A stretch of DNA of 36,270 nt from assembly GCA_964623925.1 (NCBI GenBank), contig CAZUVT010000003.1, positions 1 through 36,270 on the forward strand. Reading direction: 5' to 3'. Source of the DNA: an uncultured Erysipelotrichaceae bacterium (GTDB lineage Bacteria; Bacillota_I; Bacilli_A; Erysipelotrichales; Erysipelotrichaceae). The translations under genes and the position numbers were made by a program. The notes below the pieces were generated by a model that saw nothing but the letters and a program-made list of their open reading frames with translations, ran no database searches and was not told where the DNA came from. This document shows, in pieces, positions 7,439 to 26,777 of this stretch (position 1 is the first letter of the stretch; each line of letters begins with the position of its first letter).

Positions 7439-9349
7439 CTATCGAATGATCGTTCCTTTAGGAAGATCGACTTCTACTACTTTGATTTTTCCATCTGCTT
7501 CTCCGGCTAAGATCATTCCCTGACTTTCCACTCCGCGAAGTTTAGCAGCTGCCAGATTGCTGATGACGACAACTTTCTTACCGACCATCTCTTCCGGCTT
7601 ATAACTGGATGCGATACCACTGACGATCTGACGGGTTTCATAACCCAGATCGATCTGTGATACCAGCAGCTTATCTGCCTTTGGATGCTTTTCACAGGCA
7701 ATGACTTCACCGACTGTCATTTCAACCTTGCCGAAATCATCAATCGTAATTTCCGGTTTTGTCTGCGGCTTTTGGATCTGAGGCTTGCTTTCAGCGACAA
7801 TCTTTTCCAAGACTTCTTTTTCATCCAATCTTGCAAACAGGATCTCTGCTTTATTCAAAGTAATTCCGTTTTCCAGCTGACCAAATGTTCCGACTGTTTC
7901 AAAATCTCTCTTCTCTGTATTCAGCTGATCCAAGATCTTCTTTGAAGTTTCCGGCAAGAACGGCTCCAACAAGACAGCCGAAGTACGGATGCATTCAAGC
8001 AGATTATACAAAACGGTTGCCAGACGAGTTTTTTTGCTTTCATCTTTACCAAGTGTCCAGGGGGTCGTTTCATCGATATACTTATTGCTTCTTCTAAGAA
8101 GGGTGAAGATATCATCGATGGCATCAGCCACACGCAACTGATTCATCTTCTCTTCAACTTTTGCAGGCAAAGAAGCACACATTTCAATCAGTTCTTCATC
8201 AATCGCTTCTTTTTCATTGGTGTTTTCGACTAAACCGCCGAAATACTTATGGCTCATCGTGATCGTACGATTGACTAAGTTTCCAAGAATATTCGCCAAA
8301 TCCGAATTGATGCGTTCAATAATCAATTCATGAGTGACCGTTCCATCTTGGGCAAAAGGCATTTCATGCAGCATGATATATCGAACTGCATCCACACCAA
8401 AATGACGCACAAGATCATCGGCATAGATTACATTTCCCTTGGATTTGCTCATCTTTCCTTCGCCGACCAGCAGCCATGGATGACCGAAAACCTGCTTAGG
8501 AAGTGGCAGATCCAGTGCCATCAGCATGATCGGCCAGTAAATCGTATGGAATCTTAAGATATCCTTTCCAATCAAATGAACATCAGCCGGCCAGTATTTC
8601 TCATAAAGTTCACCGTGATTTCCATCCATATCAAACCCCAATCCGGTGATATAGTTGGATAAGGCATCGATCCAGACATAGACAACATGACGATCATCAA
8701 AGTCAACCGGAACGCCCCATTTGAAAGAAGTTCTGGATACACACAGATCCTGCAAGCCCGGCTTGATGAAATTGTTGATCATTTCATTCTTTCTCGATTC
8801 AGGCTGAATAAAATCCGGATGTTCCTCGATATGTTTCAATAAACGGTCTGCATATTTGCTCATCTTAAAGAAATAAGCTTCTTCTTTAGCTTTCTGAACA
8901 GGCCTTCCGCAATCCGGACATTTTCCGTCAACCAACTGAGATTCGGTATAGAAAGATTCACAAGGAGTGCAATACCACCCTTCATATTCTCCCTTGTAAA
9001 TATCGCCCTGCTCATACAATTTCTTAAACATCTTTTGAACCTGCTTTTTATGATATGCATCTGTCGTTCTCATGAAACGATCATATGAGGTATTCATCAG
9101 ATCCCAGATATCCTTGATCTGTCCTGCCGCATTATCTACAAATGCCTGTGGTTCAAGGTTAGCAGCTTTCGCCTTCTCTTCGATTTTTTGACCATGCTCA
9201 TCTGTTCCGGTCTGGAAATAGACATCATAGCCTGCATCTCTTTTATAGCGGGCAATCGCATCGGCAAGTACGATCTCATATGTATTTCCGATATGCGGCT
9301 TTCCGGATGCATAGGCAATTGCCGTTGTAATATAATACTTTCCTTTCAT
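7439..9349 (-). CDS. metG: methionyl-tRNA synthetase with C-terminal tRNA-binding (EMAP-like) domain
   Basis: HIGH motif (GKPHIGN), KMSKS motif (KMSKSKGN) and a zinc knuckle CPDCG. The C-terminal about 100 aa forms an OB-fold tRNA-binding domain. Confidence 0.95.
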   Translation of the reverse strand: MKGKYYITTAIAYASGKPHIGNTYEIVLADAIARYKRDAGYDVYFQTGTDEHGQKIEEKAKAANLEPQAFVDNAAGQIKDIWDLMNTSYDRFMRTTDAYHKKQVQKMFKKLYEQGDIYKGEYEGWYCTPCESFYTESQLVDGKCPDCGRPVQKAKEEAYFFKMSKYADRLLKHIEEHPDFIQPESRKNEMINNFIKPGLQDLCVSRTSFKWGVPVDFDDRHVVYVWIDALSNYITGLGFDMDGNHGELYEKYWPADVHLIGKDILRFHTIYWPIMLMALDLPLPKQVFGHPWLLVGEGKMSKSKGNVIYADDLVRHFGVDAVRYIMLHEMPFAQDGTVTHELIIERINSDLANILGNLVNRTITMSHKYFGGLVENTNEKEAIDEELIEMCASLPAKVEEKMNQLRVADAIDDIFTLLRRSNKYIDETTPWTLGKDESKKTRLATVLYNLLECIRTSAVLLEPFLPETSKKILDQLNTEKRDFETVGTFGQLENGITLNKAEILFARLDEKEVLEKIVAESKPQIQKPQTKPEITIDDFGKVEMTVGEVIACEKHPKADKLLVSQIDLGYETRQIVSGIASSYKPEEMVGKKVVVISNLAAAKLRGVESQGMILAGEADGKIKVVEVDLPKGTIIR

Positions 9350-9384: not shown

Positions 9385-9603
9385 TCCTAAAAACAAAAAA
9401 GCGCCTGCTAAGGACGCTTTTGCGTGGTACCACCTTACTTTACATTCAATTGAATGCCTCGTGTCAGATAACGCCTTCCCGCGGTCAAGCCTACCTATCG
9501 ACTCAACTGTTCAAGGACCATGTTCACATTCTGTTTCTATAGATTCTCACCGGCCATCTACTCTCTTAAAGAAGCACAATGCTACTCTTCCCATCATTAC
9601 ATT
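9385..9603 (-). promoter_or_regulatory. T-box riboswitch leader of metG with terminator
   Basis: The minus-strand sequence AAGGTGGTACCACGC (plus 9422-9434) matches the T-box core. Immediately 3' is a stem followed by UUUUUUGUUUUU (plus 9391-9420). Confidence 0.6.
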
Positions 9604-9609
9604 TACTAC

Positions 9610-10333: not shown

Positions 10334-10759
10334 CTAATCTGCTTCCTTATCCGCTTTTAACTGATTCGCTATATACTCTTTGATTATTTTCGTATTCTTC
10401 CCTACTGTGTCCACATAGTATCCCTTACACCAAAACTCTCGATTCCGATATGCAAATTTCATATTCCCAAATCGCTGAAACAGCATCAAACTGCTTTTCC
10501 CTTTTAAGTACCCCATGAATCCGGATACACTCATTTTGGGTGGTATCGCCAACAATAAATGTACATGATCTGCACAGACCTCTCCTTCGATAATCTCGAC
10601 TCCTTTCCATGTACATAATGTCTTGATGATTTCTCTTATTGCCGCCCTTTTTTCATTGAAGAATACTTTCCTTCGATATTTTGGTGCAAATACGACATGA
10701 TATTTACAATTCCATTTTGTATGTGCTAAACTATTCGTAGCATTATTTTGTTCACTCAA
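10334..10759 (-). CDS. tnpA: IS200-family Y1 (HUH) transposase TnpA
   Basis: HUH motif HVHLLL, YHVVFAPKYRRKV and catalytic-Tyr region FWCKGYYV. Probable TTG start 8 nt after AGGAGG. Confidence 0.85.
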   Translation of the reverse strand: MSEQNNATNSLAHTKWNCKYHVVFAPKYRRKVFFNEKRAAIREIIKTLCTWKGVEIIEGEVCADHVHLLLAIPPKMSVSGFMGYLKGKSSLMLFQRFGNMKFAYRNREFWCKGYYVDTVGKNTKIIKEYIANQLKADKEAD

Positions 10760-10919: not shown

Positions 10920-13754
10920 TTATTTTAAAGCACGGATTGCGTTGAATACCGCCAGAAGCATAACTCCGACATCCGCAAAGATAGCCAATCCCATATTAGC
11001 CTGACCGATCGCACTTAATACGAGGATAAATGCTTTTACCAATAATGAGAAAATGATATTTTGCATTACAATCCGGCGGGTCTTCTTCGCTCCTTTGATG
11101 GCATCGTTGATCAGCATCAGATCATCATTCATAATGACTACATCTGCTGCTTCGATTGCCGCATCACTCCCAAGTCCGCCCATTGCCAATCCGACATTGG
11201 CCAATGCCAGTACCGGTGCATCATTGATTCCATCTCCGACATAAGCACAGTTTGCATGCTGATTCAGCTTTTCAAATGCTTCCACTTTATCTGTTGGTAA
11301 CAGTTCGCCGTGAACTTCATTGATTCCGCATTCTTGTGCAACTGCCGAAACACTCTTATTATTGTCACCGCTTAAAATTACGGTCTTCTTGATTCCAATT
11401 GTTTTCAGATCACGGATAGCCTGTTTTGCTGTCGGCTTGATTTGATCATTGATGATGATCACACCACTGTATTTTCCATCGATTGCCACATAAACAGCCG
11501 TTCCTTGAGTTGCGGTTTCTTCAAATTCAATGCCGTTCTTTCTCATTAACTTTGAATTCCCGGCCAGAATCACATGATGATCAAATTGCGCTTCAACTCC
11601 ATGTCCGGCTAATTCATTGACACTTTCGATTTTAGTTGAATCAATCGTTTTTCCATATGCTTTGACGATCGCTTTGGAAATCGGATGGGTAGAATTCGAT
11701 TCAGCATAAGCACAGTATTCAATCAATCGTTCTTCCTCGATTTCCGATTTGACTTCAGAGACAAAGAATTCTCCTTTTGTAATCGTACCTGTTTTATCAA
11801 ATACAACGGTATCCACCGCATTTAATGCATCTAAATAGTTGCTTCCCTTTACAAGAATTCCCTTTTTGGAAAGTCCACCGATGCCGGCAAAATAAGTTAG
11901 CGGTACTGAAATAACCAACGCACACGGACAAGATACAACCAAGAAGATCAATCCACGATGGAAATATTCCCAGAAATCTGCCGAAGGAATGATCAGCGGA
12001 CAGATAAAGGCAATGATACAAGCCAATGCAACGACAGATGGCGTATAGACTCTTGCAAAAGTAGTAATGAAATTTTCAGCATGGGCTTTACGATTGGATG
12101 AATTTTCTACAAGATCCAAAATCTTGGAAACTGTTGATTCATCGGAGGTTTTCGTAACCCGTACTTCAAGGAGTCCCTGCATATTGACACATCCGCTGAT
12201 GACCTCATCATTCACGCTGACATCTCTTGGCAAACTTTCCCCTGTCAAAGCAGCCGTATTCAAGCTGGAAGCTCCATTTAGTACAACCCCATCCAACGGC
12301 ACTTTTTCACCCGGTCTAATAACGATGATATCGCCCACATTTACTTCTTCAACTGCCATTTTCTCAATTCGATCGCCAAGCTTAACATTGGCTTCATCCG
12401 CTCGAATATTCATCAACTCAGAAATAGAGCGGCGGGAATTCTCTACCGCAATAGCTTGAAGAAGCTCTCCGATCTGATAAAGCAACATAACGAAGACACC
12501 TTCCGCAAATTCACCTGTTCCGATCGCTCCGACTGTAGCCAAAGCCATCAGGAAATTTTCATCCATCCACTGTCCTTTTCCCATATTTCTAATCGCGGTT
12601 TTCAATACCGGATATCCAACCAAAAGATAAGAAACCAAATAACAGATCAAATTGATCGGTGATTTTAGAAACTGTGCACCCACTAAAAATAAAATAGACC
12701 CTACGATCTTCAATATATCAGAACGATGATTTTTTGTTTCTTTTTTATTTTGTCCGGATGATTTTTTTTCTTCCAAGGTACAATCAGGCTCTACCCGCTG
12801 GATCGTTTTTCTGATATTCGAAATTGCCTCATCATAATATTTTTGTTCAACATCAAAAGACAATGTTTCATTCATAAATATCAGCTGAACATTTTTCAAA
12901 TGATCGATTTTTGCAATTTCTCTCTCTAGCTGAGCTGCACAATTGGCACAATCCAAACCTTTCACAAGCATCTGAATCTTTCCGACAGGAACTCGATGAT
13001 CTTCAACCTGTTCATCATAATGATGCTCACCATGATCGTGTCCACATCCACATTTGTGATCATGATGGTGCTCGTGATGATCGTGGTTATGGTGATGTTC
13101 ATGATGACATTCACAATGTGAATCATGTTCGTGATGATGGCTATGATGTGCTTGATTTTTCTCTAAACTTGCTTCTGGTTCCACCCTTTCAATCACTTCT
13201 TCAATTTCGTGAATCATTTCATCCAACCGTTCTTCTTCACATTCAAACAACAATTTTTCCTGCATAAAATTGATCGATACGTTTTTCAATCCTTCAATTT
13301 TTGCAATCTCTCTTTCAAGCTTAGCTGCGCAATTAGCACAATCCAGCCCGCTTATTTTCATTTGGATCTTTTTATCTGAAGACTCGTGATCTTCTTGGCA
13401 ATTGCATTCATGGTCACAATGAGAATGATGATCCTCTCCACACTCATATTCATGATGATGGTGTTCATGTCCGCAGCCACAGCTGTGACTATGCTCATAA
13501 TCATGGTGATGTTCTTTTTCGTTGTGATGCGACCCTTTGACTAAACTCGCCTCCGGCTCCACTCTTTCAATCACTTCTTCAATTTCATGAATCATGTTAT
13601 CCAACTGTTCTTCCTCACACTCAAACAACAGTTTCTCCTGCATAAAATTAATTGATACGTTTTTCAGTCCTTCAATTTTTGTAATCTCTCTTTCAAGCTT
13701 GGCTGCACAATTAGCACAATCCAAGCCCTCGATTCCCATTTTCACTTGTTTCAT
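10920..13754 (-). CDS. P1B-type heavy-metal translocating ATPase (CPC motif; Zn/Cd/Co/Pb-type) with three N-terminal HMA domains and His-rich linkers
   Basis: DKTGT phosphorylation site, SCPC transmembrane metal site, GDGINDAP and a TGES-like TGESLP motif. There are three GLDCANCAA(K/Q)LE HMA repeats separated by His/Cys-rich stretches. Start is placed at the second ATG (13754, preceded by GGAGG), which also aligns repeat 1 with repeats 2 and 3. The track start at 13775 has no SD. Confidence 0.9.
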   Translation of the reverse strand: MKQVKMGIEGLDCANCAAKLEREITKIEGLKNVSINFMQEKLLFECEEEQLDNMIHEIEEVIERVEPEASLVKGSHHNEKEHHHDYEHSHSCGCGHEHHHHEYECGEDHHSHCDHECNCQEDHESSDKKIQMKISGLDCANCAAKLEREIAKIEGLKNVSINFMQEKLLFECEEERLDEMIHEIEEVIERVEPEASLEKNQAHHSHHHEHDSHCECHHEHHHNHDHHEHHHDHKCGCGHDHGEHHYDEQVEDHRVPVGKIQMLVKGLDCANCAAQLEREIAKIDHLKNVQLIFMNETLSFDVEQKYYDEAISNIRKTIQRVEPDCTLEEKKSSGQNKKETKNHRSDILKIVGSILFLVGAQFLKSPINLICYLVSYLLVGYPVLKTAIRNMGKGQWMDENFLMALATVGAIGTGEFAEGVFVMLLYQIGELLQAIAVENSRRSISELMNIRADEANVKLGDRIEKMAVEEVNVGDIIVIRPGEKVPLDGVVLNGASSLNTAALTGESLPRDVSVNDEVISGCVNMQGLLEVRVTKTSDESTVSKILDLVENSSNRKAHAENFITTFARVYTPSVVALACIIAFICPLIIPSADFWEYFHRGLIFLVVSCPCALVISVPLTYFAGIGGLSKKGILVKGSNYLDALNAVDTVVFDKTGTITKGEFFVSEVKSEIEEERLIEYCAYAESNSTHPISKAIVKAYGKTIDSTKIESVNELAGHGVEAQFDHHVILAGNSKLMRKNGIEFEETATQGTAVYVAIDGKYSGVIIINDQIKPTAKQAIRDLKTIGIKKTVILSGDNNKSVSAVAQECGINEVHGELLPTDKVEAFEKLNQHANCAYVGDGINDAPVLALANVGLAMGGLGSDAAIEAADVVIMNDDLMLINDAIKGAKKTRRIVMQNIIFSLLVKAFILVLSAIGQANMGLAIFADVGVMLLAVFNAIRALK
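13160..13345 (-). repeat. intragenic direct repeat copy A (HMA-domain unit 2), about 90% nt identity to copy B
   Basis: Direct comparison of 13184-13350 with 13560-13728 shows near-identical runs, for example CAATCACTTCTTCAATTTC(G/A)TGAATCAT and TGCAATCTCTCTTTCAAGCTT. Confidence 0.7.
13536..13722 (-). repeat. intragenic direct repeat copy B (HMA-domain unit 1)
   Basis: See copy A. The period is about 376 nt. Confidence 0.7.
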
Positions 13755-13773
13755 AGCGCCTCCAACATCAAAC

Positions 13774-13793
13774 ATATGAACAACTGTTCATAT
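13774..13793. promoter_or_regulatory. ArsR/SmtB-family-like operator (ATATGAACA-AC-TGTTCATAT) overlapping ATPase promoter/5' UTR
   Basis: Perfect 9-2-9 inverted repeat with a TGAACA/TGTTCA core. It sits immediately downstream of the predicted -10. Confidence 0.55.
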
Positions 13794-13795
13794 AT

Positions 13796-13824
13796 AGTAT
13801 ATGAAAGCTTTCTGATTCTGTCAA
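13796..13824 (-). promoter_or_regulatory. promoter TTGACA-17-TATACT for heavy-metal ATPase
   Basis: Minus-strand TTGACA (plus 13819-13824) and TATACT (plus 13796-13801), 17 nt apart. Confidence 0.55.
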
Positions 13825-13834
13825 TCAAAATATA

Positions 13835-13859
13835 GAAAAAAGATCAATTTCTTGATCTT
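13835..13859 (-). terminator. terminator of TIR-domain gene
   Basis: AAGATCAA-tttc-TTGATCTT stem, followed on the minus strand by TTTTTT. It lies 3 nt after the stop codon. Confidence 0.65.
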
Positions 13860-13862
13860 TTC

Positions 13863-15368
13863 TTATATAGAACATGCAACAATCAAAAATGGAATAATGA
13901 ATATTAGGATAAAAAACGATACGACGAAAACGACCCAACCAGCTCCTGAACTTTCAGAATCACGTCTAATTGCTTTCAGTTTACATTCTTCTGCAAGTTT
14001 TTTAGAATCCTTATAATCCACAATAGAATTAAATGTCTTCTCTAATTCTTCATAATCATATTTTGAAACGGCTGTTTCCATCGCTTTAACAGCTTCGGCA
14101 TAGATTTTCTCATTGCGCATCTCTTGTGCCTGATCTACATATCCTTGAATTTCATTTGCCAATTTTGGATCAGCATACAACATCAACTTCTTATAACTGG
14201 TTTTCGTACTGAAATCGATTTTTGAGTTGACCAATTCCTCTTTTTTATTGACATGGACATTGGCCATGATTTTATACAAATAAATGAGTGGATTTTGCGG
14301 ATCTTGATCTAATGCTTTTTCACAATACTCATTCGCTTCATCCCATTCTTCAAAATTTAAAAAGATTTCAATTCGTTTAAGTAAATTTTCCACTTTCGCT
14401 TCCTCAGTAAGATCCTTACTCTCTCCTGAATCATGATTTACTTTAATTTCAGTTTTGATTTCTTTTTTCTCATCTTTTGCACAGATCTTTTTAATTCCTC
14501 GAATCAGATCCTGCATAAAGCCCAATTTTGACATATCCTGAGCCTGCAAATGCGAGAATTCTTCCGGAAGATCATAAGGATCCATGTCCCGATAAGCCGG
14601 AATCAGTGTCTTCTTTTCTCCTCGCTTGATCAATTCCAGATAGCGGCTCCATTCATTCTTGACCCATACCGAATTCAAATGTTCTACGTTCGTCCCGATT
14701 ACAACCATGACTTTAGCACTGTGTAAAGCAGAGAATATGCATGATTCGTAATTCTCACCCAATTTATTTTCTAATGTAATTCGTGAGAAAAAGACTTTAA
14801 ATCCTTCATCTTTCAGTTCATAATACAATTCATTGGCCAAGACCGAATCTTTAGTTCTATTGCCTTCCTTATCACTTTCTTTATAACAGATAAATACATC
14901 ATACGGAGATTCTTTTTGAGAAAGTACCAAGATCTGTTTGCGGATATTTTCGATTTCATTTCCTGATTCTTCATAAAGCACTTTTGAATCTTCATCTGCG
15001 TATTCAATCGCTTTCTTATAATCATCATCTTCCAGTAAAGATTGTACTTGCAAGCGATGGATCGTCGGTATCCTTCTCTTAGTTTGCGGATCTTCAACAT
15101 ATTCGACTCCATATCGACACAAAACAAGTGACCAATAAGCCAAAGCCTCTTTTGAATCTTCCAATAAGATCTGCTCATATAGATTCATAGCGCGATCATA
15201 TTCATGAAGTCGAAGAAAATGATCTGCACGATCAAATAAGTTTATTTTTCTATCATTCCCCATCTTAGGAAGTGCCTGCTTAATGCCGCAGCTATCACAG
15301 ACTCCAACCACATCTCCCTCTTTAAATTCCAACTTTCCCCCACAAATCTTACACTTCAACTCAACCAT
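13863..15368 (-). CDS. zinc-ribbon / TPR-like / TIR-domain protein with C-terminal transmembrane anchor
   Basis: N-terminal CxxC...CxxC (CKICGG...CDSCG). TIR core YDVFICYKESD ... SVWVKNEWSRYLEL, including a W-x-x-x-E motif. The C-terminus is a hydrophobic helix WVVFVVSFFILIFIIPFLIVA. RBS GGGAG. Confidence 0.7.
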   Translation of the reverse strand: MVELKCKICGGKLEFKEGDVVGVCDSCGIKQALPKMGNDRKINLFDRADHFLRLHEYDRAMNLYEQILLEDSKEALAYWSLVLCRYGVEYVEDPQTKRRIPTIHRLQVQSLLEDDDYKKAIEYADEDSKVLYEESGNEIENIRKQILVLSQKESPYDVFICYKESDKEGNRTKDSVLANELYYELKDEGFKVFFSRITLENKLGENYESCIFSALHSAKVMVVIGTNVEHLNSVWVKNEWSRYLELIKRGEKKTLIPAYRDMDPYDLPEEFSHLQAQDMSKLGFMQDLIRGIKKICAKDEKKEIKTEIKVNHDSGESKDLTEEAKVENLLKRIEIFLNFEEWDEANEYCEKALDQDPQNPLIYLYKIMANVHVNKKEELVNSKIDFSTKTSYKKLMLYADPKLANEIQGYVDQAQEMRNEKIYAEAVKAMETAVSKYDYEELEKTFNSIVDYKDSKKLAEECKLKAIRRDSESSGAGWVVFVVSFFILIFIIPFLIVACSI

Positions 15369-15399
15369 TTCTATTTCTCCCTTTCCATTCTAATTACAT

Positions 15400-16104
15400 T
15401 TATTTCTTATCCTTTAGTGTTGATAAAATATTTTGAACATTTGATTCTTTTATAACATCAGGATATTTTTTATCAAATTCAATTAAAACATTTTGAGTTT
15501 CAATTTCCGAAGATCGGACAGATTCATAAATCTCTATAAAATTCTTATTGATAAATGCTTTCTCAATAAATATTCTTGAATCTGCCGAAAAATCATCCCA
15601 TCCCCCATAAAGGTTTTGTACTGCTGTATCGATCATTTCAAATGTAATCGGCATATTTCTTTTTTCATGTTCTGCAAGTATTCCAACAATATCTGATAAA
15701 TCGTTTTTATATATTCTTCCCGCCTTTAATTTCATGGCAATTAAATATTCTCCGGTAACTGTTCTAATTGAAAGCACATTTGAAAATGTTTTATAATATG
15801 TGGAAAACTCATCTAATTTCATCGAATAGGAACTTGTATTTATAAAATCTGTATTGATCCATTCTTTTGGCAAATCAAATTTTTCTCCTACAACATTAAT
15901 GGCTTCTTTCATTGCAGAAGAAGCATAGATAATTGCATCGATATCGGTAGTCATATCTCTAAAACCATAGTTTGTCAAAATTGCAGCACCACCAACCAAA
16001 ATAATTTCGGCTGGCATGATCTTTCCATTGCGTTTTCTAAATTCTTTAGCCAAATCTTTAAGTATTAACTCTAAATTCTCTTTAGTAAACTTTCTATGCG
16101 ACAT
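15400..16104 (-). CDS. AbiEii-like (DUF1814-type) nucleotidyltransferase
   Basis: VGGAAILTNYGFRDMTTDIDAI matches the GG-x14-DID spacing and the R-x-T-x-D-I-D signature of AbiEii/Pol-beta NTases. The start overlaps the upstream gene by 11 nt. RBS GAGGT. Confidence 0.5.
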   Translation of the reverse strand: MSHRKFTKENLELILKDLAKEFRKRNGKIMPAEIILVGGAAILTNYGFRDMTTDIDAIIYASSAMKEAINVVGEKFDLPKEWINTDFINTSSYSMKLDEFSTYYKTFSNVLSIRTVTGEYLIAMKLKAGRIYKNDLSDIVGILAEHEKRNMPITFEMIDTAVQNLYGGWDDFSADSRIFIEKAFINKNFIEIYESVRSSEIETQNVLIEFDKKYPDVIKESNVQNILSTLKDKK

Positions 16105-16663
16105 TTCTTACCTCGCTTTCAATAATATTAAAACGCAAGAACTCTGGAATTGCTTCAGATATGGCTTTTTTCTTTATGTCATCATCATTCATCACATGTG
16201 ACATCACCAAGACACTCTTTGGAAAAAGATAATCTTTTAGTTTTGCATTCCGGATATATTCATAATCTGTGCATAATGGAATATCGTTTTCTCTGCTCAA
16301 ATAATCAAGCATAGCAAGAAGATAAAAACATTCAGGAAAATACTTTTTATTGTAATATTCAAGTATTTTATTTTTGCTCAGTAACTCAATTATAAAATCA
16401 ATATCTCCCAATGCTTTCAGTCTATGACAGACATTGCTTTTAAAAAGTTCAAAATCCACTCGATCATATAAATAGGATTCGATAAGTTGTTCCATGGAAA
16501 TACCAAGAGTTTTAGAAATACGATAAATCGTTTCTCCGGTACATTTATTCAAATGTACTTTTCCATTACAAATATCGTTGATCGTTGTATACGCAATTCC
16601 ACTCTCCTTGGATAATCGATATTTGGTGATCTTTTTTTTCTCCATCAATTCATTAATTGTCAT
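16094..16663 (-). CDS. Xre-family HTH protein with about 130-aa C-terminal domain (putative regulator/antitoxin partner of the NTase)
   Basis: N-terminal HTH (ITKYRLSKESGIAYTTINDICNGKV). Translationally coupled to the NTase gene. Confidence 0.55.
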   Translation of the reverse strand: MTINELMEKKKITKYRLSKESGIAYTTINDICNGKVHLNKCTGETIYRISKTLGISMEQLIESYLYDRVDFELFKSNVCHRLKALGDIDFIIELLSKNKILEYYNKKYFPECFYLLAMLDYLSRENDIPLCTDYEYIRNAKLKDYLFPKSVLVMSHVMNDDDIKKKAISEAIPEFLRFNIIESEVRNVA

Positions 16664-16683
16664 CGTTATTTCCTCGCCTTAAA

Positions 16684-16712
16684 ATTATAACGGTATACCG
16701 ACATAATATCAA
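16684..16712 (-). promoter_or_regulatory. promoter TTGATA-17-TATAAT for HTH–NTase–TIR cassette
   Basis: Minus-strand TTGATA (plus 16707-16712) and TATAAT (plus 16684-16689), 17 nt apart. The predicted start is about 20 nt upstream of the ATG. Confidence 0.5.
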
Positions 16713-16766
16713 TAGTCTATGCTGTCTATTAATTATTTATTCTATATTAAAATTAAGAAGATCCGA

Positions 16767-17462
16767 TTATTTTCTTCGTAACAATTTGCTGTTTCTTTCC
16801 TGAATCTTTTGCTGTATTTCATTTGAAATCATTTGAACCTGTTCCAATTCTGACTTTTTAACAGCTTCTATTAATCTTGAAAACAATACTTGAATCTCTC
16901 CTTCCAGTTCAATCAGATCCTCTGTGCTCATCGGATCGGCATATCGGAAGAGTTCGTATACTTTCTGACACTCTTTTCTTATTTCTTTTGAATCTGTCTT
17001 TTGAATCAGCTGTTTTGATACAGTCGTCATCGAACGGATAAAATCCGTTTGATTGAGGATCCTATCATCAATCGATTCAAGATAATCTGCTGTTTTTTTC
17101 GCTTTAATTGAAGCAAAGACCGTTATACATGCTATCATCATGCACCCAATAGCACCGATCCAATTCGGGAAATTCGGCACAAACAGAATGACAACGATCA
17201 TGAAAACGATTCCTGCCAGTCCCCATAGTCCGATCTTAATTAAAGGGAAATGATAAAAAACATGCGACAACTTCCCGGCCCGATAGGCGGAAAATATGAG
17301 AATACTCTGCATGATCAAACTTAAATTAACTAAAATAAAGGTTCCGATCACCACTTTATTGGATGCATCCTGCATAGAAAAACCGGACCGGATCGCAAAA
17401 ATATTATAAAAAACAAGCGCGGCAAGAGAACAGATTTGAAACTCTTTAAATTCTTTCTCCAT
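16767..17462 (-). CDS. integral membrane protein (about 4 TM) with C-terminal coiled-coil, YdjH-like position
   Basis: Hydrophobic helices throughout the N-terminal half. The start is probably MEKEFKEF (ATG 17462, RBS GAGGA) and not the track start at 17540, which overlaps the upstream gene. Confidence 0.5.
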   Translation of the reverse strand: MEKEFKEFQICSLAALVFYNIFAIRSGFSMQDASNKVVIGTFILVNLSLIMQSILIFSAYRAGKLSHVFYHFPLIKIGLWGLAGIVFMIVVILFVPNFPNWIGAIGCMMIACITVFASIKAKKTADYLESIDDRILNQTDFIRSMTTVSKQLIQKTDSKEIRKECQKVYELFRYADPMSTEDLIELEGEIQVLFSRLIEAVKKSELEQVQMISNEIQQKIQERNSKLLRRK

Positions 17463-17467
17463 CCTGC

Positions 17468-18346
17468 TTATCCTCTTTTCTTTCCACATTTCGGGCAGAA
17501 ATTCCCTGATCTTGTAAAAACATACCCGCAATTTGAACAAACTTTCTGCTCATCATAAAGAGGATTTCCACATTGCTCGCAAAATGAAGAATCCGCATGA
17601 TTCTTCATGCCGCAGTTCTCACAATAGATTTCCTCTTTCATTGTATTTGATTCTTTTTGAAAATACATCTGCTTGTACTTTTCGTATTCTTCATCTTCCG
17701 GCTTAACGATCGTTGTAATAAAAAAGCGTTCCAGAACAACTCCATATTCTTCGAAATCTGCGCTGAGAAGATTCTTCAGATTCTCTGACAATAAAGACAG
17801 ATTCTCATCAATACTGAAAATCGTGAATTCTTTCTGACTCATAACATGGGCAAGATAAGTTTTTATTTTTGTCATCAATACAGCTCTAAAAAACTGCTGA
17901 ACTTCCTGCCGATCCACTTCCGGATCTGAGCCGGCCACTTTAATCAGAAACTTTCGGCTGTCTTCGATTCGCAAAGACATTTCTCCGGAAGCACCGATAG
18001 ATAAAAGAAAATGATAGGTAGGTTCCAAGTATTCCACCCGGCTATCTGTTCCCCATTTAATCGGCATCAACTCATTCTTGTTGATAAAATAGACAGCGCA
18101 GTGAAAAGCCGTTTTATTTTCCTTTTTTCGATTGAAAAAATCTGTTATTTTCGGGATATTCTGTGTTTCAAGTGTATACCTTCCAGGGCCAAACAAATCT
18201 AATGCCTGACCATTCATAAAAAAGATGGCCTCTTGATTTTCCTGTACCACAAGTTGAGTAAAAGAGTCGAAATCTTCATGTGGATGTTTCCAAGAAAATG
18301 CATGACTATCTCCTTCATATTTAATTACTTCTGTCGCTCTTCCCAT
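17468..18346 (-). CDS. SPFH-superfamily protein of the YdjI / COG4260 type with two C-terminal zinc ribbons
   Basis: The N-terminus VIKYEGDSHAFSWKHP...LVVQENQEAIFFMNGQ resembles the YdjI family start. The C-terminus has CENCG...CEQCG and CSNCG...CPKCG. The real start is MGRATEV (ATG 18346 after GGAGG); the track extension to 18538 overlaps mscS. Confidence 0.55.
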   Translation of the reverse strand: MGRATEVIKYEGDSHAFSWKHPHEDFDSFTQLVVQENQEAIFFMNGQALDLFGPGRYTLETQNIPKITDFFNRKKENKTAFHCAVYFINKNELMPIKWGTDSRVEYLEPTYHFLLSIGASGEMSLRIEDSRKFLIKVAGSDPEVDRQEVQQFFRAVLMTKIKTYLAHVMSQKEFTIFSIDENLSLLSENLKNLLSADFEEYGVVLERFFITTIVKPEDEEYEKYKQMYFQKESNTMKEEIYCENCGMKNHADSSFCEQCGNPLYDEQKVCSNCGYVFTRSGNFCPKCGKKRG

Positions 18347-22985: not shown

Positions 22986-23470
22986 TATTTTGCCTCTTTT
23001 TTCTTTCTAATTTCATTTTAACACTCATTTCAAAAATTGACAACTTTCCTTTTCATGTTTATGAAAACGTTAAGTCAAATGAGGGTAGATTATGAAACTA
23101 TCAAGAGAAGTGAAGATCCTTCCCTACATTTTTACTGTGTATTCTATTTTTCTATATTATTCCAATCTTTCTTCCACAGAAAGAGCGGATTTCTATCTTA
23201 TTATTTACCGTTTCCGGTCGTCTTCCATATATACCTTCCACACTTATCTATTAGGATCCTTCTTGTTGGATCTATATTCTCATTTATCTCTTATTTAGTT
23301 TCTAAAAATAAAAAGGAAGCCAAAGTAACTTCTTCAGCAGAAACACCCGAATCCAAGATTTACTCTTTTGGACATTCAGTGCAAGATACAAAAGAGTTTA
23401 TGTAACTCACCTTGATTTTGTTGCTTTGCCTTTTTTATTTTGATAAGTTAATCTTCAAGGAGGAATCTTT

Positions 23471-24169
23471 ATGCTTATCAAGATCTTATTAGTTGTCGTT
23501 CTTTTCTTATCTGGATGTAATTCTTCCATATCTTCCTCAAACGATTCAGAATCAGAAAATAAAAAAGAATCGGTAGAAGGAGAAGTCATCTCTGTTTCAG
23601 AAAACTCTTTGCTTATTTCCTATGAACAAACTTTAGCGACCGTATCCTTGAATGATTCTGATCATTCATTTTCGATCGGCAACATCGTAAAAGTCAATTA
23701 TGAAGAAATTCAAGAAACTTATCCTGTCACTTTAACTGATCCGGATATTGAATTAAAAGAAATCGGCGATAACCGAATTGAAATGATATTCAATGTTATC
23801 TGTGAAATTTACGAAATTGATCCGGGACTCAACTCTGAAATCAATTTTATCGCATTGAATCTCACTGAATTTGATTTTCTCAATGAATCTCAAAAAAATG
23901 CCTTGTGCTATTTGGTTGAGTCCAAGTTTAAATTTACCGTCCAACAAGCAACCATGGAGGAGTTGATTGAACAAGGCTTAGCCGAAGAGATGCTGATTCC
24001 TGAAGGAATTTTATTCACCTTTAAGTGCGATGATTTCAATTCAAAAGAGCTAAAATTTACCTGTGCAAAATACAGAAGTGGGCTTGGTGCTATCTTCTTT
24101 TCCGAAAGCAAAGCAAAACTAAAAAATCATATTTGGAATTATGAGCTTGGCGGTTTCTCTATATCATAA
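23471..24169 (+). CDS. lipoprotein, unknown function
   Basis: Signal peptide with lipobox LFLSGC, then an acidic Ser-rich linker. AAGGAGG RBS. Confidence 0.6.
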   Translation: MLIKILLVVVLFLSGCNSSISSSNDSESENKKESVEGEVISVSENSLLISYEQTLATVSLNDSDHSFSIGNIVKVNYEEIQETYPVTLTDPDIELKEIGDNRIEMIFNVICEIYEIDPGLNSEINFIALNLTEFDFLNESQKNALCYLVESKFKFTVQQATMEELIEQGLAEEMLIPEGILFTFKCDDFNSKELKFTCAKYRSGLGAIFFSESKAKLKNHIWNYELGGFSIS

Positions 24170-24198
24170 TCTCTTCTCCTATCAAATATCAATTCTAA

Positions 24199-24238
24199 CA
24201 AAAACTCACTTTCAACCAATAAAAGTGAGTTTTTTATT
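24199..24238. terminator. bidirectional terminator between convergent genes
   Basis: AAAACTCACT / AGTGAGTTTT 10-bp stem, flanked by A-run and T-run. Confidence 0.65.
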
Positions 24239-24239
24239 T

Positions 24240-25136
24240 TCAATATTCTGCTTTCATTTCTTCGACATCATTAACTGATAATCCAGACAAAAGGGCTATT
24301 ACTTCAGTCGTTAATAATCCATAATCAATCATTCTCTTAACAATTAAAGATCTTTCTTTCTCCTGTCCACATTTCAAACCAATTAATTTCCCTTTTTCTA
24401 CAGAATGCTTTATCATGTCTTCTACTGCTTTACACATATCCAATACATCCTCCTTTTCTTTGATTTTAACAGGCAATCTTGTATAAGCTTTAATCATCAT
24501 GAAACACTCTTCATCCAACTCACGATACTCTTCTCTTTTTAAACATTCTAACATATCAATCTCATGTTGGGAATACTTCAAAACCCGCAGTAATTTTTCA
24601 ACTCCACTCGAACATTTATTCAAAATTTTTTCACCAATCAAATAAGGATCCAAGATCCGGATCTTATATTCGCTTACCCAATTAGAATAATCCAGCATCT
24701 CTGTGATACTTTTCGCTCCTAACCATCTTTTTCCGCTCAAATTCAAAACCAGAGTAATCACTCGATGAATCCGATCTGTAAATTTGATACCACTTAAAAA
24801 CTCACCTTTTTTCAACTTATTTCGTTCATGATTCCCCTTCATGCGCTTCAATAATTTCTTATAGGTCAATGCATCATATTCCATAATTCTTACTGGCATG
24901 GTTGGATCAATAAATGATTGAATTTCTATTCCGACAAGAATAACTTCTCCCGATTTCAATCGGCACTTCTTCAGAATATCTCTTTGATTATTCTGAAAAA
25001 TCGGATCCAATTCCTGAATATCACATGAAGAAAGAAATCGTTCTCCATCAAATAAAGAAAGATTGACTAAATCTACAAAAACATCATTTCTACCAATATA
25101 GGATTTCGCAAGAATATTTTTATTAAATTTACCCAC
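24240..25136 (-). CDS. Rpn-family recombination-promoting nuclease / putative transposase (PD-(D/E)xK, YhgA-like)
   Basis: NDVFVDL ... EVILVGIEIQS matches the D...E.QS nuclease core of the Rpn/TIGR01784 family. The C-terminal TEVIALLSGLSVNDVEEM tail is typical of this family. Confidence 0.6.
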   Translation of the reverse strand: MGKFNKNILAKSYIGRNDVFVDLVNLSLFDGERFLSSCDIQELDPIFQNNQRDILKKCRLKSGEVILVGIEIQSFIDPTMPVRIMEYDALTYKKLLKRMKGNHERNKLKKGEFLSGIKFTDRIHRVITLVLNLSGKRWLGAKSITEMLDYSNWVSEYKIRILDPYLIGEKILNKCSSGVEKLLRVLKYSQHEIDMLECLKREEYRELDEECFMMIKAYTRLPVKIKEKEDVLDMCKAVEDMIKHSVEKGKLIGLKCGQEKERSLIVKRMIDYGLLTTEVIALLSGLSVNDVEEMKAEY

Positions 25137-25274
25137 TGTCTTTTTCCTCCTAATATATTTATTCGTACAAATTCCTATTCTCCCAAATTTTTCCTATATA
25201 TTCCCGAAATACGAAAAATTTTAAAATTCTTATTTCCCGAGAAAAGAAAAAGGCTGAAGTTTTCCTTCAACCCT

Positions 25275-26549
25275 TTAGTTCTTTCTTGGCTCACTCATCT
25301 TTCTCTTTAAAAGATTCATCTGAATTCTACTATAATCCATGGCCTCACGAAATCTTTTCTGCTTGGATAGATTCTCAATTAACAGATCCAGAATAAAATC
25401 CTGAACAATAAATATATTGTCTTCCTCAGTATGAACGTATAATAATTTCAAATATTGAACAATTTTTGTTTCATTTCGTTCTAAAATTGCCTGCATTGTT
25501 CCGATCATTAAACGATAATATTCATCTAATCCATCATGAGCTTTCTTTAACTGTTCCAAAGCGCGACTGCATTTTTGCAAATCACCAAGCTTATAATACG
25601 ACCACATTTGAATATCATTCATTTGCATCAAATATAATCCTTCATCAATACATTCTTGAGAAACTGCAACAGCTTTTTCATAATCTCCCTTATAGAAATA
25701 GTTTTCTGCCATATTAAATCTTACCGCGTTAATTACTTTATTAATATGTAATAATTGAGCAGTTTTAAATACTTCATTGTAGTACTCTTCTGCATCATCA
25801 AATCGATATAAATGCATTAAATTCATGCCAATATGACAACAGGTATATAATGCTCTAATATAATTATTTGTAGAGTCAAATAACTGTTTAGCTTTTTGAT
25901 GACTGATCAACGAATTAATTGGATTGCCCATCTTCCAATAAACAAACCCTAAACCATAATATAGCATTCCTTTTAAATCATCACAAATATTTGAGAATTT
26001 TGATATTGCCTGGTTGTATATTTTTAGTGCATCTTGCCAATTTAGTTGTTCGCAGTAGTAATTTCCTCGATAAAGTAAATAGATAAAATATTCTTCAGGA
26101 CTATACAAATCAACAAAGTATCCATTTATGATCTTTATATCATTTTTCACTCCATTATAATCATCTACAATAAAACAGTAAATCATTTCTAATAAATAAT
26201 ATAATGGTGCATCCGGTGTATATGCTTGACTCATTTTAGCCTTTAAAAGATTCTTTGTTTTATCAACAAATGAATCATAATCGGCATAAACTAAAAAATT
26301 AATACAATCCCAAAAACTATTTTTAAAATTTCTTTCACTTTTACATCTAATATCAAAGAAGTCTGCATAAAGTTTTATCTTTTCAAAAGATACATTTTTA
26401 CTTCCTCTTTCAATATCTGAAATCATCTGCTTACTTAGCCCAATTATTTGAGCAACTTCCTGACCTGTATAGCATCCAGATTCACGTTCTTTTTTTAAAA
26501 CTCTTCCTAGAGTTGACAGTTCATCTCTTTCCGCAAACGGTTGATTCAT
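25275..26549 (-). CDS. Xre-HTH + TPR-repeat transcriptional regulator (RNPP/Rgg-like architecture)
   Basis: N-terminal HTH_3 (TGQEVAQIIGLSKQMISDIERG). The rest is predicted helical repeats with TPR-like W/Y/L periodicity. 424 aa. Confidence 0.55.
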   Translation of the reverse strand: MNQPFAERDELSTLGRVLKKERESGCYTGQEVAQIIGLSKQMISDIERGSKNVSFEKIKLYADFFDIRCKSERNFKNSFWDCINFLVYADYDSFVDKTKNLLKAKMSQAYTPDAPLYYLLEMIYCFIVDDYNGVKNDIKIINGYFVDLYSPEEYFIYLLYRGNYYCEQLNWQDALKIYNQAISKFSNICDDLKGMLYYGLGFVYWKMGNPINSLISHQKAKQLFDSTNNYIRALYTCCHIGMNLMHLYRFDDAEEYYNEVFKTAQLLHINKVINAVRFNMAENYFYKGDYEKAVAVSQECIDEGLYLMQMNDIQMWSYYKLGDLQKCSRALEQLKKAHDGLDEYYRLMIGTMQAILERNETKIVQYLKLLYVHTEEDNIFIVQDFILDLLIENLSKQKRFREAMDYSRIQMNLLKRKMSEPRKN

Positions 26550-26555
26550 CGTATT

Positions 26556-26777
26556 TTACTTAACTCCACAGCCATCATTTTTTTCAGGATCACATCTTCC
26601 ATAAAGCCCATCTCCAGGCCTCTCACATACTGTATTTCCTTCATCATCAAGATAGCAGCAAATTTCAACACCTTCCTCATTAACATTGCATCCAAGTGCT
26701 GAGTTTGCCTTCACATTCTGGCTTGCGCTTGCCAACATGGCAACACATAGTGTAATTGTAAGAATTAACTTTTTCAT
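26556..26777 (-). CDS. secreted Cys-rich small protein (73-aa precursor, about 49-aa mature, 6 Cys)
   Basis: Sec signal peptide MKKLILTITLCVAMLASASQNVKA with an AxA-like cleavage site. GGGAGG RBS. The stop lies 6 nt before the regulator start. Confidence 0.5.
   Translation of the reverse strand: MKKLILTITLCVAMLASASQNVKANSALGCNVNEEGVEICCYLDDEGNTVCERPGDGLYGRCDPEKNDGCGVK

Follow-up and report, generated by a model that had tools for sequence, protein, structure and literature searches.

An HTH–nucleotidyltransferase gene pair, probably a toxin–antitoxin-like module, inserted beside a TIR gene in an uncultured Erysipelotrichaceae bacterium

Three consecutive genes on the minus strand of a 36,270-nt stretch of DNA from an uncultured Erysipelotrichaceae bacterium (assembly GCA_964623925.1, contig CAZUVT010000003.1, positions 1 to 36,270; this whole stretch is called the window throughout) encode an Xre-type helix-turn-helix (HTH) protein, a nucleotidyltransferase (NTase) and a membrane-anchored protein with a TIR domain. 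Do they constitute one undescribed defence system, as a sequence-only reading of the locus had proposed, or are they neighbours through insertion? We report that the HTH and NTase genes form a mobile two-gene cassette inserted beside the TIR gene, and we hold with high confidence that there is no three-gene system. Our preferred reading, to which we give a probability of roughly 60%, is that two unrelated units came to lie side by side through this insertion, and that the HTH–NTase pair is an autoregulated module resembling toxin–antitoxin (TA) systems.

A cassette inserted between a membrane-protein gene and the TIR gene

GC content, open reading frames (ORFs), Pfam domains, and PADLOC and NCBIfam matches were computed for the proteins of the whole window. 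The local features from which a single operon had been read are all present. The HTH gene (16094-16663, minus strand, 189 aa) and the NTase gene (15400-16104, minus strand, 234 aa) share 11 nt (16094-16104), and a 31-nt spacer (15369-15399) with a Shine-Dalgarno-like GGAAAGGGAG before the TIR ATG separates the NTase gene from the co-oriented TIR gene (13863-15368, minus strand, 501 aa). A consensus scan places a promoter, TTGATA-17-TATAAT, at 16684..16712 (minus strand), and folding reveals a terminator with a hairpin and U-run at 13822..13868 (minus strand; -12.7 kcal/mol, z = -3.0) directly 3' of the TIR stop codon, which the consensus terminator scan did not call because the stem is AT-rich. 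Since the 31-nt gap holds no terminator, co-transcription of the TIR gene with the HTH–NTase pair is plausible in this genome, and would be simply a consequence of the insertion.

The evidence for an insertion comes from two relatives with an empty site. Locus L008 (GCA_949744505.1) is syntenic with the window, carrying in order DeoC, TrkA, TrkH, MscS, an SPFH protein, a 251-aa membrane protein, a TIR protein 65% identical to that of the window, an HMA P-type ATPase and ArsC. There the stop codon of the membrane-protein gene, whose product has four transmembrane segments (4-TM), is followed after 13 nt by the TIR ATG, and the same 13-nt junction is found in a second relative, L010. By blastn and junction alignment, homology to both loci breaks at 16767, the 4-TM stop codon, and restarts about 20 nt before the TIR ATG. 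Because both relatives show the empty site, we identify the 1.38 kb at ~15386..16766 (minus strand), comprising the promoter and candidate operator, the HTH gene and the NTase gene, as an insertion absent from the syntenic sites of relatives. Its GC content is 0.31, against 0.35-0.39 in the flanks. Loss of the pair from L008 and L010, rather than its gain in the window, was rejected in view of this deviant GC content and of the tight 12-60-nt spacing that is usual between 4-TM and TIR genes in distant loci.

Neither a target-site duplication nor a terminal inverted repeat was recognised at the insertion junctions. Both junctions end AAGAAA(A)TAA, the ends of the insert abutting strings that are almost identical, AAGAAAATAA where the 4-TM gene stops (16767/16766) and AAGAAATAA where the NTase gene stops (15400/15399). 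These strings may represent microhomology for the insertion or chance resemblance in AT-rich sequence.

The behaviour of the pair elsewhere is consistent with an independent, mobile unit. A homologue search of a 5.8-billion-protein collection, in which hits were mostly ~65% identical, returned nearly equal families for the two proteins (4562 NTase and 4466 HTH homologues), and we examined 43 NTase loci, 7 reached via three homologues and 36 in species-representative genomes. The HTH gene lies immediately upstream of the NTase gene, with the overlap kept, in 43/43, and within 5 kb no homologue of the TIR, SPFH or 4-TM protein occurs at any of these loci. Grouping the flanks of about 40 loci by sequence gives 27 groups upstream and 28 downstream, with neighbourhoods that include an integrase-bearing element, a RepL replicon and housekeeping genes. 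Conservation begins a few bases 5' of the -35 box and stops at the NTase stop codon, and most other copies carry a hairpin terminator directly after the NTase gene, which the window copy does not have. The HTH–NTase pair is thus a compact, self-contained, horizontally mobile two-gene cassette; with about 4500 cluster representatives, it is abundant in gut and rumen Clostridia.

We also examined 83 loci of TIR homologues, clustering their neighbouring ORFs into families, and no HTH or NTase gene occurs in any of them. Together with the absence of TIR genes from the 43 NTase loci and the empty sites in L008 and L010, this refutes a three-gene system at the level of conservation: homologues of the three genes are not syntenic elsewhere. 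The proposal that the NTase makes or uses a signal gating the TIR protein is likewise unsupported, and so is the supposed defence-island position: the flanks (Trk, MscS, SPFH, P-type ATPase, ArsC) consist of housekeeping genes that a related genome has in synteny. The claimed three-gene novelty disappears, and two abundant, uncharacterised units are delineated instead. The locus also carries a warning: genes that look like a tidy operon, complete with promoter, translational coupling and terminator, may owe their arrangement to a chance insertion, and it is the comparison of gene order between genomes, rather than the local sequence grammar, that tells what is a system.

The SPFH, 4-TM and TIR gene cluster

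The conserved partners of the TIR gene are two genes between MscS and the cassette that the sequence-only reading overlooked. The first gene of this cluster (17468..18346, minus strand) encodes an SPFH protein with a Band_7_1 domain (Pfam E 5e-37) and a C-terminal double zinc ribbon (DZR, E 5e-10), of 292 aa if translation starts at Met65 of an ORF reaching 18538; the L008 orthologue is likewise 292 aa. The second (16767..17540, minus strand), a homologue of which lies directly upstream of the TIR gene elsewhere, encodes the 4-TM protein of ~230-257 aa, its start codon being uncertain, with a C-terminal region predicted to form a coiled coil. Weak PADLOC matches of the 4-TM protein to Cas7 and to a type I S subunit (about 12-19 bits) are confined to that region, and both identities were rejected.

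Only two neighbour families recur around TIR genes, namely Band_7_1 SPFH proteins with zinc ribbons and ~230-aa 4-TM/coiled-coil proteins. Among the 83 TIR loci the former is found in 38-39 (on the same strand in 38/39) and the latter in 38, always after the SPFH gene; both are present in 31 and at least one in 45. The order SPFH then 4-TM is fixed and co-oriented with TIR, one to five tandem TIR paralogues follow or precede directly, and at least two paralogues are found in 39/83 loci. Where at least 2.5 kb is available on both sides (34 loci), SPFH is found in 19, and the ATPase, MscS, TrkH and TrkA in at most 2 each; because these other neighbours of the window recur so rarely, the SPFH–TIR linkage is not mere local synteny. 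Examples are L008, L049-L122 and L129-L131, from gut and rumen Clostridia, and the triplet also appears in gene-called loci of one complete genome and two metagenomes. L008 and L129-L131 share the order of the window, which is interrupted solely by the insert.

The TIR protein itself is the short, tail-anchored form of a very large Clostridial family, built of an N-terminal zinc ribbon, tetratricopeptide repeats (TPRs) on both sides of a TIR domain and a C-terminal transmembrane segment. At least 8000 homologues were found, most of them ~800 aa long and provided with an additional, extracellular DUF6273 domain. The first ~300 residues (zinc ribbon, helical region and TIR) are highly conserved, with the CxxC..CxxC motif invariant across the family, and both this motif and the hydrophobic C-terminal tail are visible and conserved in the window protein. 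Pfam TIR_2 matches residues 158-281 (E 1e-12), and W235xxxE239, which does not vary among 14 diverse members of the family, falls opposite the W..E of Brucella TcpB (4lzp) in an alignment, bearing out the earlier recognition of a TIR domain with a WxxxE glutamate; the domain is predicted to be catalytically competent as an NADase. No PADLOC model matches the protein, and with the NCBIfam Thoeris model ThcB4 it reaches 26.7 bits, far below the cut-off of 220. Long family members run past the transmembrane segment into DUF6273 or RCC1-type domains; most TIR proteins of the cluster carry variable ectodomains, C-type-lectin-like DUF6273 or RCC1 repeats. DUF6273 is described as a C-type-lectin-like domain and a target of diversity-generating retroelements in phages (PMC10743442, PMC11792537).

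The SPFH–4-TM–TIR cluster combines a scaffold of flotillin type with TIR proteins that are membrane-anchored and receptor-like; no PADLOC model matches it, and a literature search on SPFH proteins with TIR, phage or anti-phage found nothing relevant. By analogy of architecture with YdjI of Bacillus subtilis, organisation of the membrane-anchored TIR proteins may fall to the SPFH and 4-TM proteins. A tentative reading, which we entertain without favouring, is that this cluster, with its soluble SPFH protein, is an undescribed Clostridial system for TIR signalling or immunity, receptor-like and organised at the membrane, by which an outside ligand or envelope damage would be converted into cytoplasmic TIR NADase activity, and that the cassette and other cargo (SIR2, HerA, HEPN) occupy its variable junction. 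We regard the cluster as a more interesting lead than the pair.

Several clusters contain additional genes. Defence-like genes stand at or near the junction between 4-TM and TIR genes, or between TIR paralogues, at L105 2895-3854, L063 8271-9179, L084 7897-8796, L114 2680-3585, L110 1952-4585, L061 3134-3613 and L098 4194-4976. The types seen are SIR2_2/ThsA-like (abutting TIR genes in 4/83 loci), an 877-aa HerA/DUF87 ATPase, a 159-aa RNGLVH (HEPN-like) protein and a PDC-S31-like protein. Between the 4-TM and TIR genes of L055 (1021-2100) and L063 (811-2124) lie TIR-less paralogues with a zinc ribbon, TPRs and a coiled coil, reminiscent of B. subtilis YdjG; the L055 protein has a hydrophobic, apparently membrane-spanning C-terminal segment.

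The junction may be a variable cargo slot, and its contents hint at a conflict-related role for the cluster, although they are far from proof. One could go further and take the cluster as a defence locus and the cassette as loosely cooperating cargo, comparable to the genes of SIR2/ThsA-like, HerA-like, HEPN-like and PDC-S31-like type that other loci have at this junction or close to it. We consider this improbable: the cassette resides, away from any TIR cluster, in 43 other loci; cargo at the junction is heterogeneous and uncommon, being seen in only a handful of the 83 loci; and several of these clusters sit among housekeeping genes. In the reading that we prefer, the TIR gene is the last gene of a conserved chromosomal SPFH–4-TM–TIR cluster, into whose 13-nt 4-TM/TIR junction the cassette landed. 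The TIR gene of the window would then probably be transcribed by read-through from the cassette promoter, from the upstream operon or from both, and would be functionally independent of the cassette.

The HTH–nucleotidyltransferase pair as a putative toxin–antitoxin module

Taken by itself the promoter scan is not evidence, as the window holds 16 promoter-like sites against 15.6 expected. The cassette's promoter, of sigma-70 type, is distinguished by its conservation and by a palindrome in its spacer, CGGTATACCG (16691..16700, no strand assigned), which is the candidate operator for the HTH protein. The pattern CGGT-N2-ACCG occurs once in the window against 0.06 expected. The -35/-10 pair is kept upstream of 36/43 homologous pairs; TTGACA-17-TATAAT with CGGT-N2-ACCG in the spacer appears exactly once in each of these 36 loci and in 0/88 other loci, at a constant position and with a central dinucleotide that varies. 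We infer that the HTH protein binds this palindrome, whose place in the spacer is compatible with negative autoregulation.

Both proteins of the pair have features expected of such a module. The putative antitoxin and autorepressor carries an N-terminal Xre HTH (Pfam HTH_26/HTH_3, residues 3-62; HTH_26 E 8e-12), whose nearest structures are SinR, DdrO, C-proteins, HigA and HipB, followed by a family-specific helical domain at ~70-170. The putative toxin matches DUF6036 (PF19502), which Pfam lists as a nucleotidyltransferase of unknown function, with 30.9 bits where the cut-off is 23.6 (E 2.9e-7); 22/22 of its homologues match the family too, and it has a helical C-terminal half. Its sequence carries the hGG...DxD signature of the Pol-beta superfamily; G38 G39, D54-I-D56 and AMK125..R130..D135LxD138 are invariant, even in comparison with actinobacterial plasmid homologues of 23-25% identity.

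The label AbiEii-like, given to this protein earlier, holds in part. Its assignment as an NTase is upheld by a DUF6036 match above the cut-off, and its relation to AbiEii is only distant: the window protein does not match AbiEii (PF08843) at E<=10, and 21/22 homologues match it weakly, with scores short of the cut-off and a best E of 0.002. The AbiEii cut-off is passed by one distant DUF6036 protein from a plasmid (28.1 bits against 22.5), and by the weak matches of its homologues the closest Pfam relatives of the family are AbiEii and DUF2204. The distant plasmid DUF6036 genes also have a small gene upstream, overlapping or adjacent; the HTH family was compared by hhalign with two of these small partners, and no relation was found.

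Two decayed copies of the pair were seen. At L044 5001-5249 the NTase is cut after residue 83 and the HTH gene is intact, and at L045 4709-5476 the NTase has an internal deletion and a frameshift and the HTH gene is truncated.

Gene order, translational coupling, the promoter palindrome, mobility and decayed copies make up the standard signature of TA modules, which is why we propose a TA-like model as the likeliest mechanism; within it, the assignment of the toxin role to the NTase is, from the sequences, slightly favoured. By acting at CGGT-N2-ACCG, the HTH protein would keep the promoter of its own gene repressed, and its C-terminal domain would neutralise the NTase. Once freed, the NTase would act as a toxin, by analogy with AbiEii and MenT perhaps adding nucleotides to tRNA acceptor ends, and the module could serve in addiction or abortive infection. 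The type IV TA/Abi logic suggested earlier for the HTH and NTase genes thus survives, given their invariable pairing, overlap, conserved promoter and operator, and mobility, but does not extend to the TIR gene.

Several observations weigh against this model. The 120-aa C-terminal domain of the HTH protein has no detectable relative, so that its neutralising role is a guess, and the predicted structure of the protein identified nothing beyond the HTH domain. The AlphaFold2 (AF2) model of the NTase, derived from a shallow alignment of ~66% identity, is all-helical with a confidence (pLDDT) of 59; because of this low confidence it was not used for a fold search, and the proposed Pol-beta fold is argued from the Pfam profile and the motifs. 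In a profile search of the PDB the best match, a 'nucleotidyltransferase-like protein' (5uvd, E 0.23), is not significant. A literature search on DUF6036 found no paper, and PADLOC has no model for the NTase, the pair matching nothing there except weakly through its HTH. Searches of viral contigs and of phages recovered no copy of the pair, a plasmid search with the NTase returned distant actinobacterial members only, and no recombinase or terminal repeats were found that would explain the movement of the cassette. Finally, with no terminator in the spacer, the NTase and TIR genes could conceivably have become functionally coupled in this one lineage.

Pol-beta NTases also include antibiotic nucleotidyltransferases of similar size. 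The pair could lie outside conflict altogether and encode a nucleotidylating enzyme under repressor control, acting on a small molecule such as an antibiotic (in the manner of the ANT and Lnu enzymes) or on another cellular substrate, a role that horizontal mobility of the cassette would suit. In NCBIfam, understood to cover NCBI's resistance-gene models, the NTase has no match of any kind at E<=0.1; its closest Pfam relatives are AbiEii and DUF2204, and strict, translationally coupled pairing with a partner that has a private domain is typical of TA modules. We consider such an enzyme unlikely.

Still less likely is the reverse assignment, on the pattern of HEPN/MNT type VII modules, by which the HTH protein would be toxic through its C-terminal domain and the NTase would be the antitoxin that nucleotidylates this domain. 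In its favour, the antitoxins of HEPN-MNT modules are minimal NTases, no family matches the C-terminal part of the HTH protein, and the truncated NTase beside an intact HTH gene in L044 implies that the HTH protein is tolerated alone. That combination is, however, just what is expected of a dispensable toxin, and the Rx4-6H HEPN motif is not among the invariant residues of the HTH family. An HTH-bearing partner encoded first suits an antitoxin and repressor, and a 234-aa NTase with a helical C-terminal half and AMK..R..DLxD resembles AbiEii toxins rather than MNTs of ~100-140 aa.

Least credible of all is the single HTH–NTase–TIR defence system in which a nucleotide signal from the NTase gates the TIR effector, a highly unlikely arrangement despite the shared orientation, the one strong upstream promoter, the lack of a terminator between the NTase and TIR genes, the one after TIR and the retained catalytic Glu, in view of the missing co-occurrence and empty sites described above, the terminator that most other copies of the pair carry right after the NTase gene, and the different partners (SPFH and 4-TM) with which the TIR gene is conserved.

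Elsewhere the window contains further features of note. An IS200-type Y1 transposase gene (PF01797, E 2e-40) lies at 10334-10759 (minus strand) between the P-type ATPase and an ArsC-like gene; because L008 and L010 pass straight from ATPase to ArsC, it is a second lineage-specific insertion. The P-type ATPase (10920-13775, minus strand) has at its N-terminal end three HMA-like repeats with long linkers rich in His and Cys between them, and at 951 aa exceeds its orthologues in L008 (860 aa) and L010 (816 aa) by ~90-135 aa. A second low-GC stretch (0.29-0.33) at 23000-26600 may be another acquired segment; it encodes an HTH_3 and TPR protein of RRNPP/PlcR-like build (25275-26549) and two ORFs with no Pfam match (23471-24169 and 24240-25136). 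An ordinary T-box leader (9407-9606, minus strand; Rfam RF00230, 124 bits) stands upstream of methionyl-tRNA synthetase (7439-9349).

Comparison with known systems

For the SPFH–4-TM–TIR cluster, a likeness by architecture alone is found in the B. subtilis pspA-ydjGHI (samGHI) membrane-stress module. There an SPFH protein of Band_7_1 type, ending in a zinc finger, is encoded beside membrane proteins, one of which begins with a zinc ribbon (PMC8581546, 10.1101/2021.02.15.431232), and the SPFH protein, YdjI, is soluble and recruited by the membrane proteins YdjG and YdjH (PMC8581546). The SPFH protein of the window likewise combines Band_7_1 with a zinc ribbon. In contrast to that module, no PspA-like family recurs near the TIR clusters, and YdjG is described without a TIR domain (PMC8581546, 10.1101/2021.02.15.431232), unlike the TIR protein of the window.

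With Thoeris (a ThsB TIR protein and ThsA) the cluster shares the catalytic Glu of the TIR domain and, in the 4/83 related loci noted above, an abutting SIR2_2/ThsA-like gene. It differs in that the window TIR protein is far below the ThcB4 cut-off and unmatched in PADLOC, has no SIR2/SLOG (ThsA-like) gene beside it, and is a membrane-anchored zinc-ribbon/TPR fusion partnered by SPFH and 4-TM proteins.

The HTH–NTase pair departs from HEPN-MNT type VII TA systems in the lack of an Rx4-6H HEPN motif among the invariant residues of the NTase's partner. It is closer to type II TA systems with Xre antitoxins (HigA, HipB, Xre-RES/ParST), having an upstream, overlapping Xre HTH gene and a palindrome in the promoter spacer, but the partner of its HTH protein is an NTase rather than an RNase, kinase or ADP-ribosyltransferase.

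The AbiE and MenAT systems offer the closest parallel. AbiEii and MenT toxins nucleotidylate tRNA acceptor ends, their HTH antitoxins autoregulate, and the AbiEi antitoxins fall into the classes AbiEi_3, AbiEi_4 and DUF4095 (PMC7725324). Like these systems, the pair is a two-gene operon of mobile and patchy distribution, with the gene for an HTH protein first and that for a putative Pol-beta-superfamily NTase second, and with likely autoregulation through a promoter operator; the NTase has the GG, DxD and K..R..D..D helix motifs, and its homologues weakly match the AbiEii profile. The putative toxin is, however, a DUF6036 protein rather than AbiEii/DUF1814 (PF08843), and its partner an Xre/Cro-type HTH protein with an unrelated C-terminal domain rather than an AbiEi winged-helix protein, so that on sequence criteria the pair falls outside AbiE by both of its proteins. 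If our proposal is true, the pair would add a new toxin family and a new type of antitoxin to the AbiE/MenT-like NTase TA systems, with an operator that can be tested.

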